Counted from the first letter of the stretch, positions 8,827-13,427 are shown. The stretch: 64,000 nt of DNA from Candidatus Bathyarchaeia archaeon (GCA_038883655.1 JAVZLQ010000002.1:217625-281624); one strand, 5' to 3'. The notes: a model not told the origin generated them from the letters alone. Program-made: numbers and translations.

Positions 8827-9255
8827 TTAAATGATGGTTTTCGGTTCCTCAATTTTCTTCATTAGGGAAGGCCTGATATGCGCTTGTGGTGGCTGTGGGA
8901 TTCCCTCTTCTTCGGTTATGACTTTGGGCAGTCCATTTGTGCCTATTTTTCTGCATATGAAGTTAAGCGAGTCCTCTGTGAAGTTCAGCAGGTTTCGTCC
9001 TTCAACTGTTAGCTTGTAAACTTTTCTGGGCCTTTCGCTATCCATGTTCCACTCGCTTTTCACATAGCCCTTCTTCTCCAAAGTGTTCAACAGCGGATAG
9101 ATTGTGCTTGGTCCGAAGTATACGCCGAAGTTTTTGCGTATGCGTGTTATTATTTGGTAGCCGTGCATCGGTTGGCTGCTTAGGAACTGTAGTACTATTA
9201 GGTCTAGTAGGCCTTTCATCAATTTAACCTGAACTTCTTTTGAGGTGTTAACCAT
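8827..9255 (-). CDS. PadR-family transcriptional regulator
   Basis: PMHGYQI, STIYPLLNTLEKKG, RPRKVYKLT. Confidence 0.92.
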   Translation of the reverse strand: MVNTSKEVQVKLMKGLLDLIVLQFLSSQPMHGYQIITRIRKNFGVYFGPSTIYPLLNTLEKKGYVKSEWNMDSERPRKVYKLTVEGRNLLNFTEDSLNFICRKIGTNGLPKVITEEEGIPQPPQAHIRPSLMKKIEEPKTII

Positions 9256-9297
9256 TTCCCCTTTTCCCTTCCTGTATTTTTGTTGTACACGGATACA

Positions 9298-9319
9298 ATA
9301 TGTCTATTTTTAGACATAT
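9298..9319. promoter_or_regulatory. Palindromic operator candidate ATATGTCTA-N4-TAGACATAT between divergent padR genes
   Basis: Perfect 9-bp inverted arms with ATGT..ACAT half-sites. Confidence 0.65.
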
Positions 9320-9441
9320 CTCAAGACTTTATAGAGCCTAAACAAAAATATAAACGTTCATGCTTCAACCAAACATAAAAAAGCATAACGCGTGCATACC
9401 GCAATATTCTAAACCCTACATAAATCTAAATAAGCCGAAAC

Positions 9442-9807
9442 ATGAACAAGTCCAAAACAGAACAACAAATGGAAAGTGGAAAATTGACAGAAACCATCAA
9501 AAAAGAAATTGTTCAACGTATAACCAGAAACCTACTAGACATACAAATACTAAGACTATTAAGCGCAGAGCCAATGTGGGGATATAAGATAAAAAAGGAA
9601 GTGGAAGCAAAATTTGGAGTAAGATTAAGGCATGGGGCGCTCTACCCACTTCTAAACAACATGGAAAAGAAAAATCTAATAAAAAGCAGAGAGCAACAAC
9701 AAGGAGGAAGGACAAGAAAGGTATATGTAATGACAGAAAGGGGAAGAACGCTTATAGAAGCATACGACACGGTCCTAAAAGAACAAATACAGAAAAAGGA
9801 CATATAA
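9442..9807 (+). CDS. PadR-family transcriptional regulator
   Basis: PMWGYKI, GALYPLLNNMEKK, RTRKVYVMTERG. Confidence 0.92.
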   Translation: MNKSKTEQQMESGKLTETIKKEIVQRITRNLLDIQILRLLSAEPMWGYKIKKEVEAKFGVRLRHGALYPLLNNMEKKNLIKSREQQQGGRTRKVYVMTERGRTLIEAYDTVLKEQIQKKDI

Positions 9808-9811
9808 TTAA

Positions 9812-10843: not shown

Positions 10844-10845
10844 GG

Positions 10846-10905
10846 CTAGATAGGCCATTCGAACCAGAATGTTACTCGTACAGGCTTTACTTTTTTCTTT
10901 TTCAA
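10846..10905 (-). CDS. Putative 19-aa precursor peptide MKKKKVKPVRVTFWFEWPI
   Basis: TTG start, purine-rich SD-like GAGGGGAAAGGA, upstream TTTTTAAG TATA-like box, stop 2 nt from convergent prenyltransferase stop; too short for ORF track. Confidence 0.6.
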   Translation of the reverse strand: MKKKKVKPVRVTFWFEWPI

Positions 10906-10979
10906 GTCCTTTCCCCTCGACAACTGTATTTATGTTCAACATTTAAGCTTAAAAAGCTTGCGATAACTGAACGCTGAAT

Positions 10980-12269
10980 ATGTTTTCTAAATACTTAAGG
11001 CTTATACTCTTCAAGCAGTTCAAAATATTTGAGTACTTAACAATGATCGACAGCGATTATTTAAAGAGAAAGCTGCTACTTTCAAGAGATAAAATAACGA
11101 GTTCAATCGTTATTGCAAACTCTGTTTTATGGTACGCATACGCTTTCAATCTTCTACGAAGAATTATAGTAACTTTAGGTTTAAACTATCACGAAATCCT
11201 CATATTCTTAATCACTAATTTTCTTGCGGCCGCTATTTTTGCTTTGTCGGGTGCAACGTTAATTAATGCAGTGTGCAGAAGAATCCCGTTTTTACTTGTA
11301 TGGTTAATTTTTGGAACGGTATCTTCGTTTATTCCAATACTAATAGACACCATGGTTAAAAATAATCTTCTTATCGTTTTTTTCCTTTTTGGGGCATCGT
11401 TTGGTTTTGGAATGCCCATTTCAATGGGATATTTTGCCGATTCCACAAATGTGGAAAATCGTTGCTTAACAGGAGGAGTAATATTTCTTGCCATCGGTTT
11501 TGGAGCTTTTTTGTTAGGAACAATAAATATGGCTGAAATAAGCATTCAGTTTATGATATTGACACTTTTAAGAATTAGTGGCTTGATTGCATTTATTATC
11601 CTTAGACCACGAGAAAATTTCCCCAGAAATAAGAGTCATTCTTATATCTTTATTCTTGGTCAGCGTTCGTTCTTGCTATATCTTATTCCATGGGTTATGT
11701 TTTGTCTTGTAAACCAAACGAGTGCACGAGTATTGTATCAGTTTTTTGGGGAAAGCTTCTTTACATTTTTAATGGCAACTGAACTTGCCTTGTCTGGACT
11801 TTTTGCGGTTGTTAGTGGCTTTTTCTGTGATAGGCTAGGGCGAAAGATTGTGGCTATGGTGGGGTTTGTTATGTTGGGTCTTGGCTACGCAATGTTGAGC
11901 GTTTTTCCTGATAATGCGATAAGTTGGTACTTTTACACGGTTGCTGATGGTGTTGCGTGGGGCATTTTCTACTCGGTTTTCTTTGCGGCAGTATGGGGAG
12001 ACCTTGCGCATGGAAGTCCCAGCGAAAAGTATTATGCAATTGGCGGACTGCCATATCTTCTTTCAAACTTCCTGCGGTTGGTAGCGGGAAGGTATATTGC
12101 TGAAACAGTTGCTATACACACTGTTTTTTCTTTGGCGAGTTTCTTCCTCTTTTTAGCTGTTTTGCCTTTAATGTTCGCCCCTGAAACTTTGCCTGAAAAG
12201 CACATTAAGGAAAGGGAACTTAAAATTTACATTGAAAAGGCCAAGAGAATCAGGGAAAAATACGCTTAA
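10980..12269 (+). CDS. MFS-type membrane protein (true start may be ATG 11043)
   Basis: About 12 hydrophobic segments; GFFCDRLGRK motif A; PETL near C-terminus. Confidence 0.85.
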   Translation: MFSKYLRLILFKQFKIFEYLTMIDSDYLKRKLLLSRDKITSSIVIANSVLWYAYAFNLLRRIIVTLGLNYHEILIFLITNFLAAAIFALSGATLINAVCRRIPFLLVWLIFGTVSSFIPILIDTMVKNNLLIVFFLFGASFGFGMPISMGYFADSTNVENRCLTGGVIFLAIGFGAFLLGTINMAEISIQFMILTLLRISGLIAFIILRPRENFPRNKSHSYIFILGQRSFLLYLIPWVMFCLVNQTSARVLYQFFGESFFTFLMATELALSGLFAVVSGFFCDRLGRKIVAMVGFVMLGLGYAMLSVFPDNAISWYFYTVADGVAWGIFYSVFFAAVWGDLAHGSPSEKYYAIGGLPYLLSNFLRLVAGRYIAETVAIHTVFSLASFFLFLAVLPLMFAPETLPEKHIKERELKIYIEKAKRIREKYA

Positions 12270-12305
12270 GAACCAGTTAGTATTAGCTCTTTTTGAGGAG
12301 GACAA

Positions 12306-13427
12306 ATGTTCTTTCACGTGATACTAACAAACGAGTGCACTCTTCAATGTAGGTATTGCTTTGGCGAGGCTTTTGAGGATTTTGAGGAAAGTTTTTCAGG
12401 TTTTAATGTTGACTACTCTTTGCCTAAAAGAATAGCGTATAACATTGGGATTTTGGACGATTTTTGTAAGAAGGACTTGGATTGTGTTTTAATTTTTTAT
12501 GGTGGCGAGCCTCTTTTGTGCGTTGATGATATCAAGCGAATAATGGACAGCGTGCATGCTAAGCATTTTCTAATTCAGACTAATGGTTTGCTCTTGGACC
12601 GTTTGGAGCCAGAGTACGTTAATCGTTTGCACACGATTCTCGTTTCTGTCGATGGTGACGAAGCGTTAACAGATTTTTATAGAGGAGCTGGCACTTTTAG
12701 GCGCATAATCGAAAATCTGCGGTTTGTTAGGCGGAATGGTTTTGGCGGCGAAATCATTGCGCGCATGACCGTCATGGAGCAAACCGACATTTATAAGCAG
12801 GTTAAGTGGCTTGTTGAGAACAGCGAGTTTCCATTTTCTTCTATACATTGGCAGTTAAACGCTGGATTCTGGAGCGACTTTGAAAGAAGAGATTTTAAGC
12901 GTTGGGTTGAGCAAAGCTATAATCCTGGAATACGTAGGCTTGTCCGCTTCTGGGTTGATTATATGGAGCGGTTTGGCGTTGTTTTAAGGCTTTACCCCCT
13001 TCTTGGAATTGCACAATCCATGCTAAATGGTGAGACGCAAAGTCTATTACGTTGCGGTGGCGGATGGATAAACTACGCAATTCAAACAGACGGACATATC
13101 ATTCCTTGTCCCACAATGTGGGGAATGAAAGACTATTATTTGGGGCACATAAGCAACATAGACCCTCTAAGTTTGCGTAAGCTTTTCGTCGGCGAACCAT
13201 GCACAAAATGCGAAATCTACGGTTTATGCGGCGGAAGATGCCTCTATGCAAACATAACGAAACGTTGGAAAGAAGACTCCTACAAAGAGGTTTGCAAGAC
13301 TGTTCGAAACTTGATGGACGCAGTTTCAATGGAAATCCCAAGAATAAATAGTCTAATAAGGAATGGGCGGGTAAAACTTGAAGATTTCGATTTCATGAAA
13401 TACAACGGATGTGAAATAATCCCATAA
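12306..13427 (+). CDS. Radical SAM/SPASM protein (resembles TIGR04084/AF0577 family)
   Basis: CTLQCRYC, FYGGEPLL, QTNG; C-terminal CGGG..G.IIPC..CTKCEIYGLCGGRC..C. Confidence 0.85.
   Translation: MFFHVILTNECTLQCRYCFGEAFEDFEESFSGFNVDYSLPKRIAYNIGILDDFCKKDLDCVLIFYGGEPLLCVDDIKRIMDSVHAKHFLIQTNGLLLDRLEPEYVNRLHTILVSVDGDEALTDFYRGAGTFRRIIENLRFVRRNGFGGEIIARMTVMEQTDIYKQVKWLVENSEFPFSSIHWQLNAGFWSDFERRDFKRWVEQSYNPGIRRLVRFWVDYMERFGVVLRLYPLLGIAQSMLNGETQSLLRCGGGWINYAIQTDGHIIPCPTMWGMKDYYLGHISNIDPLSLRKLFVGEPCTKCEIYGLCGGRCLYANITKRWKEDSYKEVCKTVRNLMDAVSMEIPRINSLIRNGRVKLEDFDFMKYNGCEIIP
13407..13427 (+). repeat. attL-like direct repeat GGATGTGAAATAATCCCATAA
   Basis: 19/21 identical to 21348-21368 with 14-bp exact core; last 7 codons of the radical SAM gene. 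Confidence 0.85.

Follow-up and report, generated by a model that had tools for sequence, protein, structure and literature searches.

How does an archaeon come to carry a gene of only 19 codons, placed antisense between an isoprenoid-type enzyme and a transporter, and with which of these neighbors does that gene work? The question is raised by positions 8827-13427 of a 64,000-nucleotide (nt) stretch of DNA from a Candidatus Bathyarchaeia archaeon (GCA_038883655.1, JAVZLQ010000002.1:217625-281624), hereafter the window, which holds a gene cassette whose order recurs in dozens of genomes. Reading outward from a divergent control region, an amidohydrolase gene lies behind PadR1 on one side, and on the other PadR2 is followed by an isoprenyl-diphosphate-synthase-like (IDS-like) gene, the antisense micro-open reading frame (micro-ORF), a major facilitator superfamily (MFS) transporter gene and the gene for a radical S-adenosylmethionine enzyme with a SPASM domain (rSAM). 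The initial annotation of the locus had proposed a ComQX-like system in which the peptide is prenylated and serves as a signal; every component that it listed was found where it had been placed, and our analysis partly supports the interpretation. It is well supported that a peptide gene is coupled to a non-elongating enzyme of isoprenyl pyrophosphate synthase (IPPS) fold and an MFS protein, under a PadR-linked operator. The explanation that we favor, with a probability of roughly 0.38, is that these would be a new peptide-prenyltransferase lineage, its substrate and its exporter under PadR control, in which we infer both the chemistry and the signaling.

The micro-ORF lies at 10846-10905 on the minus strand and converges on the IDS-like gene, the two stop codons being 2 nt apart; with its TTG start read as Met it encodes LKKKKVKPVRVTFWFEWPI*. 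The source genome measures 1.42 Mb in 19 contigs and is 93% complete. We kept 80 loci from a search with the rSAM as query, 78 of them titled Bathyarchaeota, Bathyarchaeia or Bathyarchaeales, one Baldrarchaeota and one Hadarchaeota, and fetched 20 loci around IDS-like homologues; micro-ORFs were counted in 88 homologous gaps between the IDS-like and MFS genes (IDS-MFS gaps), or 82 distinct gaps after removal of six duplicate loci. Six-frame translation of these gaps showed that almost all loci contain a short ORF, invariably antisense to the genes on either side, and a peptide of 12-21 residues could be assigned in 75 of the 82 distinct gaps. Each peptide has a start, a Lys/Arg-rich stretch, the motif P-[I/V]-R (or one close to it) and, at its end, 2-9 residues that are mostly hydrophobic, as in MAKKKRIKPIRATGWW (L043), MKKPIRPIRGVWW (L040), MKARKKPVRSHGWSWWW (L045), MKKAKKRKVPVRYIIP (L056) and MEKRRTLKKKPRALYW (L064). 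A strict pattern (a basic stretch, P[IVLA]R and a 2-9 residue tail in an ORF of 11-30 amino acids) was found on the minus strand of 52 of the 88 gaps and on the plus strand of none, compared with a mean of 0.34 in 50 dinucleotide shuffles, and a looser pattern gave 69, 0 and 1.36, respectively. Both patterns were written after the data had been seen, so that the exact numbers are flattering, yet the contrast is still very large.

Several further features indicate that the ORF is coding. Among 48 distinct sequences, all four Pro codons are used at the conserved Pro (22/15/6/5), the conserved Arg is encoded by AGA (18), CGA (15), CGG (5), CGT (5), AGG (4) and CGC (1), and the mean column entropy at codon positions 1, 2 and 3 is 1.15, 1.05 and 1.58. 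This synonymous variety, together with the entropy by codon position, points to selection on residues rather than on bases. A Shine-Dalgarno-like (SD-like) 4-mer precedes 66 of the 75 starts by 4-17 nt, whereas random positions in these gaps have one in 9% of cases. In the window, the promoter and leader of the micro-ORF (10912-10956, minus strand) comprise a TATA-like element, CTTTTTAAG (10948-10956), a box, TGTTGAACA (10933-10941), the sequence ATACAG (10924-10929) and the SD-like GAGGGG (10912-10917), and the same layout of TFB recognition element (BRE)/TATA-like sequence, TGTnnnACA box and ATACAG recurs upstream of homologous ORFs. An origin by chance, as the complement of an oligo-T terminator of the IDS-like gene, was rejected on account of the strand-specific pattern, the synonymous codons, the SD-like sites and the promoter layout. 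Judged by its sequence features, then, the micro-ORF is a real, conserved gene, and the convergent 19-residue peptide gene with its own promoter and SD site described in the initial annotation is borne out. One relative, L136, carries in this gap a tandem duplication of about 310 bp (promoter, micro-ORF and 3' end of the IDS-like gene) that yields two identical peptide genes; the duplication could be real or an assembly artifact.

The position of the micro-ORF also lends itself to a role in cis, in which either a nascent polybasic P-[IV]-R chain or convergent transcription would tune the IDS-like gene, the MFS gene or both, and the free peptide would be functionless. The median distance between the peptide and IDS-like stop codons is 5 nt (n=75, range -67 to 313), which makes an overlap of the transcripts' 3' ends unavoidable. 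A single TATA-like element, common to the MFS side, is the axis about which the peptide promoter is mirrored, and in 35 of the 75 loci the Lys codons read on the IDS strand as a run of five or more T (T5+) directly behind the IDS-like stop, which could be the IDS terminator; the Lys stretch may thus serve both coding and terminator roles. Such a cis-acting element would not be expected to show selection on the amino acid identity of Pro and Arg through synonymous codons, nor to keep the hydrophobic or aromatic character of the tail over large distances, and antisense control needs neither an SD site nor an ORF, yet SD-like sites are found at 66 of 75 starts. We consider a purely cis-acting role unlikely. 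A T5+ run also occurs within 85 nt downstream of the micro-ORF in 40 of the 75 loci, a count that lacks a proper background control and was not used. A known RNA family in the IDS-MFS gap was rejected, as a scan of positions 8700-13600 with Rfam, at E values up to 1, returned none.

The genes to which the peptide is tied can be read from the loci in which the cassette is incomplete. The genome G042 (99% complete) carries two IDS-like genes, the peptide and the MFS gene with no such rSAM (best match 26.8 bits), and in G038 and G348 the PadR, IDS-like, peptide and MFS genes stand together with the rSAM on another contig. Since they persist where the rSAM is missing or elsewhere, the IDS-like gene, the peptide gene and the MFS gene (10980-12269, plus strand; PF07690, 49.2 bits) form the tight module, and the rSAM/SPASM gene and the deaminase-like hydrolase gene are frequent but dispensable companions. 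Among the 20 loci fetched around IDS-like homologues, the IDS-like and MFS genes are co-directional and adjacent in 18, the remaining two being cut by a contig end (L049) or divergent (L041); the rSAM gene follows the MFS gene in 14, two of the other six (L049 and L020) being truncated at a contig border, and many carry the PadR pair and the amidohydrolase upstream.

Members of the tight module also diverge at a pace of their own. Across the 32 loci holding all five proteins, the median identity to the window protein is 76% for PadR1, 70% for the rSAM and 62% for PadR2, with 67% for the hydrolase in 17 of these loci, compared with 42% for the IDS-like enzyme and 41% for the MFS protein. Between the window and the same-genus locus L038, the peptide tail shows several replacements and zero silent changes in the 13 codons compared. 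The IDS-like enzyme, the peptide and the MFS protein thus diverge together, faster than their neighbors, and the fast divergence of enzyme and transporter is the pattern expected of a specificity module. As for its range, an IDS-like homologue is found in 38 of 61 related genomes (E<=1e-20), including 27 of 36 within the same family, and in 57 of 301 genomes at the class level (E<=1e-45, single-protein query). By family, the class-level homologues are concentrated in f1 (35/48), f7 (12/12), f6 (3/6) and f71 (3/3) and are nearly absent from others such as f62 (1/71) and f72 (0/43), which makes the cassette a lineage-specific regulon, mainly of one order of Bathyarchaeia, rather than a class-wide one.

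The rSAM (12306-13427, plus strand) was identified, as the initial annotation had proposed alongside the MFS protein, as a radical SAM/SPASM enzyme (TIGR04084, 312.9 bits, cut-off 225; SPASM TIGR04085, 37.9 bits, cut-off 27). It belongs to the Bathyarchaeia branch of TIGR04084, with both a CxxxCxxC core and a SPASM domain, and its presence allows the locus to be read as a classical ribosomally synthesized, post-translationally modified peptide (RiPP) system, in which the peptide would be the substrate of the SPASM enzyme (cross-linking, epimerization or similar near P-[IV]-R) and the IDS-like enzyme unrelated or secondary. Its best matches outside its own family are peptide and protein maturases (PapB, 99.3 bits; nif11-type, 65.1 bits; PDB 5wgg, 63.9 bits; anaerobic sulfatase maturase, 57.3 bits), and the C/S-x-P-x-R motif recognized by the sulfatase maturase resembles x-P-[IV]-R. 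Furthermore, the IDS-like, MFS and rSAM genes follow in this order in 69 of the 80 rSAM-query loci, six others being cut by contig ends. Against these similarities stand the peptide's persistence in G042, which has no such rSAM, and in G038 and G348, where the rSAM lies on another contig, as well as five of the 80 loci that hold the rSAM alone, with no IDS-like or MFS gene beside it. In three genomes with such solitary rSAM genes (G346, G347 and G350), a whole-genome search gave best matches of only 170-182 bits to profile A2; as this profile includes the canonical synthase paralogue, these genomes are probably without the IDS-like subfamily. In addition, the rSAM is 63-85% identical across loci with unrelated peptide tails, and its CxxxCxxC motif begins at residue 11, leaving it without an N-terminal leader-binding domain. 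We regard rSAM-based maturation of the peptide as improbable, and a place in the core for the rSAM, which the initial annotation lists among the parts, is not supported in view of G042 and G348. TIGR04084 members occur in 133 of 301 Thermoproteota genomes, and the 16 loci fetched around homologues outside the cassette group (32-38% identical to the window rSAM, with one at 52%) had no IDS-like, MFS or PadR neighbor in any case and gave no functional hint.

The region behind the rSAM gene has a history of its own. A 29-nt direct repeat, 90% identical, occurs at 13407-13435, starting in the last rSAM codons, and at 21348-21376, 7.9 kb downstream. It brackets a block encoding a tyrosine recombinase with an N-terminal zinc ribbon (13451-14587), a second integrase (20037-20885) and two proteins of 518 and 588 amino acids that belong to no family, and this block looks like an integrated element with its attachment site at the rSAM gene's 3' end. 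An integrase homologue or fragment also lies about 30-50 nt from the rSAM stop in L043, L052, L054, L059, L069, L073, L078, L096, L100, L105, L110, L116, L117, L119 and L126, and the rSAM 3' end seems to be a recurrent integration hot spot in Bathyarchaeia.

We then compared the IDS-like enzyme (9812-10843, plus strand) with chain-elongating synthases. It matches PF00348 at 82.9 bits, with DDIID as its first aspartate-rich motif (FARM) and a DDFID resembling the second (SARM), and its best NCBIfam equivalog, IdsA_Meth, reaches 106.9 bits against a cut-off of 468, all 15 NCBIfam matches falling far below their cut-offs; the description of an atypical polyprenyl-synthase-fold enzyme in the initial annotation is therefore accurate. 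A canonical synthase is encoded separately in the source genome (PF00348, 220.9 bits). The AlphaFold2 model of the IDS-like enzyme has a predicted local distance difference test (pLDDT) score of 92.5, and its top Foldseek matches are trans-IPPS enzymes, with query TM-scores (TMq) of up to 0.81.

An alignment of 80 family members with the source genome's own canonical synthase shows which motifs have been kept. The FARM D-D-x-x-D is present in all 80. The SARM is acidic, (D/E)(E/D)xxD, with D in 45, E in 28, S in 3, N in 3 and A in 1 at position 1, E in 59 and D in 21 at position 2, and D in 78 at position 5. The Lys of the KT motif is kept, and the first Arg of RRG has become Lys in 73. In contrast, features that distinguish elongating geranylgeranyl diphosphate (GGPP) synthases are lost or deleted in essentially all members, namely the basic residues of GGKRxR, the second Arg of RRG and the lysine loop of GK..T. 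The canonical GGKRxRP is replaced by a W/L-x-D-F-x-H-P-like sequence, its Lys having changed to D (43), N (10), E (8) or G (8) and its Arg to F (32) or V (16); 5 of 80 retain the second Arg of RRG; and all 80 have lost the GKGQD loop by deletion, the next Lys being Cys in 43. From farnesyl diphosphate synthase (FPPS) structures, we take the lost residues to be those that hold the diphosphate of isopentenyl diphosphate (IPP) and the kept ones to be those that hold the allylic donor. On this basis the enzyme should still bind and ionize an allylic prenyl diphosphate without chain elongation, in keeping with the initial annotation, which named elongation of IPP as in a normal GGPP synthase as an outcome that would speak against its proposal.

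Whether enzyme and peptide vary in step was also considered. The chain-length position of the IDS-like enzyme (residue 99, four before the FARM) is Ala in 30 of 53 loci with Trp-tailed peptides and Phe or Leu in 17 of 20 Trp-less ones, which hints that the Trp-less clade uses a shorter prenyl donor, the association being confounded by descent. Across the alignment, this position was among the columns most associated with peptide type; as the non-Trp peptides form essentially one clade in a quick tree, the test is powerless.

PadR1 (142 amino acids; 8827-9255, minus strand) and PadR2 (121 amino acids; 9442-9807, plus strand) match PF03551 at 69.1 and 71.6 bits, above the Pfam cut-off of 27 bits. 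As the initial annotation had it, the two are divergent and share an operator-like palindrome, a perfect ATATGTCTA-N4-TAGACATAT at 9298-9319, which we take to be of the ATGT...ACAT-type PadR operator consensus and hence a candidate operator; versions of it were seen by eye, uncounted, in nearly all of the padR intergenic regions displayed. The PadR2 stop lies 4 nt before the IDS-like start, so that these two genes probably share one operon.

The peptide is connected to this pair by a second sequence. An 18-nt element, CTGTATTNNTGTTSWACA, has exactly two exact matches in the window, one in each divergent control region: 9272-9289 (plus strand), between the padR genes, and 10924-10941 (plus strand), between the peptide and MFS genes. 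On the minus strand, each copy reads as the box and then ATACAG, followed by purine-rich sequence and a start codon, which is the ATG of PadR1 in one case and the start of the peptide in the other. Among relatives (six loci being duplicates), with up to two mismatches allowed, 66 of 84 IDS-MFS gaps contain the element, as do 25 of 37 padR gaps, compared with 10 matches in the remaining 1.11 Mb of the loci. With up to one mismatch it has three sites in the 1.42-Mb genome and the reversed control pattern none. A common cis-element thus ties the PadR pair to the peptide/MFS promoter, and binding of PadR to it is predicted; of the part that the initial annotation gave to the PadRs, it is this connection that finds support. 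The presence of two operator types and two PadR paralogues suggests a division of labor between them. The third genomic copy (one mismatch; G000:C17:3910-3927, or L167 1501-1518) is followed by a TATA-like AAAGCTTATTAAG and, 8 nt later, by the ATG of a 118-residue ORF without a Pfam family, which may be a further member of the regulon.

Beyond the peptide/MFS control region, the annotated start of the MFS gene deserves comment. In L038, the locus from the same genus, its first 21 codons (10980-11042) fall in a different frame, and a DNA motif, ...CTGAATAT..., is kept there across loci in differing frames. This segment has the look of a promoter or leader and not of coding DNA, and the true MFS start may be the Met at 11043, given the change of frame in L038.

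The relationship of the cassette to known peptide prenyltransferases can be assessed from published descriptions. The ComQ-type group has the IPPS fold, an intact FARM, a metal-free pseudo-SARM N-D-x-x-D and an upstream Gln that positions the indole (bioRxiv 10.64898/2026.08.29.745113; PMC13290415). All characterized trans-IDS-like peptide prenyltransferases (ComQ, PalQ and StheQ) act on a Trp near the peptide end (PMC13290415; PMC10853753; 10.64898/2026.08.29.745113): PalQ of Paenibacillus on the C-terminal Trp of the core DNVRRFFW, in PalX, a precursor with an NHLP domain and a cleavage site between T72 and D73 (PMC10853753), and StheQ of Sphaerobacter on W68 of StheX (bioRxiv 10.64898/2026.08.29.745113). 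The acceptor Trp of PalQ and StheQ is at or beside the C-terminus, and the Pal cluster includes a histidine kinase, PalP; for StheQ/StheX, no receptor is described in the consulted sections of the preprint. As to phylogenetic range, a 2014 census recorded comQXPA nowhere outside Firmicutes (PMC4008528), and the 2026 preprint extends ComQ-like pairs to Chloroflexi (bioRxiv 10.64898/2026.08.29.745113).

The cassette resembles these systems in several respects. As in Bacillus comQXPA, an enzyme of the IPPS superfamily stands beside a short peptide gene, here in most cases with a Trp near the C-terminus, and the fast divergence of enzyme and peptide beside conserved regulators parallels the com polymorphism of Bacillus. 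PalQ, StheQ and Ord1, the last of which acts on free Trp, have the same all-alpha IPPS fold with a donor-binding FARM, and the PalX core DNVRRFFW resembles tails found here, such as ...PIRRFWG and ...PIRRYWY. Trp is present in the last four residues of 53 of the 75 peptides. Of the published ComQ-type hallmarks, the IDS-like enzyme has the trans-IPPS fold and the FARM.

A number of observations, however, weigh against a prenylated peptide. The remaining 22 peptides lack Trp in the last four residues, 14 having only Phe or Tyr there and eight no aromatic residue; the initial annotation had named a lack of conserved short Trp ORFs beside homologues of the enzyme as a refutation, and this did not come about, since short basic ORFs are conserved there and carry the Trp in a majority. 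Sixteen of the 20 non-Trp rows on a quick tree fall in one 18-row clade, and since they are mostly confined to it, the C-terminal Trp looks ancestral in the family. The pseudo-SARM N-D-x-x-D was not found, SARM position 1 being Asp or Glu in 73 of 80 members, and neither was the ComQ-type Gln upstream of the SARM: in the column aligned with the canonical Gln at -3, T (36), I (16), A (9), M (5) and L (4) are the five commonest residues, and at -1 64 of 80 members have R. PalQ and StheQ, by contrast, have both the pseudo-SARM and a hydrogen-bond network centered on the Gln. With these two hallmarks missing, the enzyme is not to be filed as a ComQ-family member, contrary to the enzyme type proposed in the initial annotation, and if it does prenylate the peptide, this function would appear from its motifs to have been reached separately from ComQ. 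By both structure and profile its closest matches are ordinary GGPP synthases (1wy0; 156.9 bits with profile A2, TMq 0.81), with which it shares the FARM and SARM acids, and the Trp prenyltransferase Ord1 ranked only 38-42 in the fold search (TMq 0.68-0.70). The peptide gene is convergent with the enzyme gene, unlike the co-directional comQX, and its product is far shorter than PalX or StheX, with no recognizable leader domain. Finally, an intact three-acid SARM equally suits a terpene-synthase-like reaction that involves no peptide.

The last point leads to a pathway of non-peptide isoprenoids. Here the IDS-like enzyme would prenylate a lipid or small molecule, or act like a terpene synthase, the MFS protein would move the product and the rSAM would tailor it, and the micro-peptide would be regulatory or accessory, for example an MFS partner or a PadR anti-repressor, rather than a substrate. 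The acidic SARM retained alongside the FARM, the ordinary synthases as nearest structures, the absence of the ComQ-type Gln and pseudo-SARM, and the existence of peptides with no Trp or aromatic tail all fit such a pathway, as does the fact that PadR proteins often control the efflux of hydrophobic compounds. It leaves without a reason, however, the near-invariant tail-to-tail coupling of the ORF with the IDS-like gene, and it explains neither the Trp-rich tails (53/75) nor the exchange of an anion-binding IPP site for Asp, aromatic and His residues. We hold a non-peptide pathway to be possible, if doubtful.

Prenylation of the peptide by the enzyme would account for these features as follows. 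The three fast-evolving, inseparable parts are the IPPS-fold enzyme, the 12-21 residue peptide gene tail to tail with it, and the MFS gene divergent from the peptide gene. The peptide, with its polybasic N-terminus, P-[I/V]-R and short hydrophobic tail, usually with a Trp, would be translated and taken by the IDS-like enzyme as the prenyl acceptor in place of IPP; the MFS protein would export the lipidated, possibly trimmed, product; and the set would be under the control of the two PadR proteins, which would act through the ATGT...ACAT palindrome and the shared TGTTSWACA-type box and might be responsive to the hydrophobic product.

In a fuller form, the cassette would be a pheromone circuit. 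The peptide would be cut after P-[I/V]-R, its 3-9 residue Trp tail would be prenylated by an enzyme lineage that evolved independently and whose former IPP site is now an acidic/aromatic peptide pocket, and the MFS protein would export it. The PadR pair would sense the product through TGTTSWACA boxes on the peptide, MFS and padR promoters, giving autoinduction. Were this so, the co-divergence of enzyme, peptide tail and MFS protein would mark pherotypes, as in Bacillus comQXP. We think of this complete circuit as a possibility that is rather doubtful as a whole. Compared with comQXPA, it would be set in Archaea, with a 12-21 residue peptide, an acidic SARM, no upstream Gln, and two PadR proteins and an MFS protein in place of the ComP/ComA pair. 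Its layout also recalls the Rgg/SHP and ComR/ComS systems of streptococci, in which a cytoplasmic transcription factor has beside it a very small peptide gene that is driven by its own regulated promoter and whose product begins with basic residues and ends in a hydrophobic or Trp-Trp C-terminus; these systems differ in having unmodified peptides, another regulator family and uptake by Opp.

On the same strand as PadR1, and 59 nt downstream of it, lies the amidohydrolase gene (7451-8767, minus strand; PF01979, 246.7 bits), which neighbors PadR1 in many loci and is possibly co-transcribed with it. The protein resembles 5'-methylthioadenosine (MTA), S-adenosylhomocysteine (SAH) and 5'-deoxyadenosine deaminases, with NCBIfam matches to PRK06038 (529 bits, below the cut-off of 609) and to the 5'-deoxyadenosine deaminase PRK07228 (375 bits, below 522). 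Deaminases of this type clear the by-product of radical SAM reactions, and a functional tie between the hydrolase and the neighboring rSAM is possible. Upstream of the cassette and outside the conserved block, 3895-6415 encodes one ATPase and two permeases of an ATP-binding cassette (ABC)-2 type transporter, together with a 291-residue Pro-rich, membrane-anchored protein. A known defense system was rejected, as the PADLOC scan returned only generic viperin-level matches to the rSAM core (38.6 bits) and none for the other cassette proteins. Window DNA is present in hot-spring metagenome runs, with no RNA run listed among those that contain it, and two runs labeled as metatranscriptomes, flagged as probably DNA, yielded fragmentary contigs over the cassette (one at 10731-11123) that show neither strand nor transcript ends and were not used.

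No account of this cassette turned up in the literature that could be searched, although the sequence similarity network (SSN) supplement tables of PMC10853753 and PMC13290415 could hold archaeal members, and the literature searched contained no peptide-based signaling or prenylated ribosomal peptide for Archaea. Among candidates for a lipid-tagged archaeal peptide signal, the micro-peptide is thus far the best. The Bathyarchaeia are abundant and uncultured, and the cassette gives them a family of genes for 12-21 residue peptides with clear marks of selection, of a size that we expect automatic annotation to skip. An isoprenyl diphosphate synthase relative in which the donor site survives but the IPP site is gone follows the evolutionary route of the ComQ type, here apparently taken independently. 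The regulon is compact and testable, with four transcription units and two types of operator besides the two PadR proteins, and its parts are small enough for heterologous work. Even if the peptide should prove to be a regulator and not a substrate, archaea would still have in it a conserved micro-protein whose genetic context is defined.

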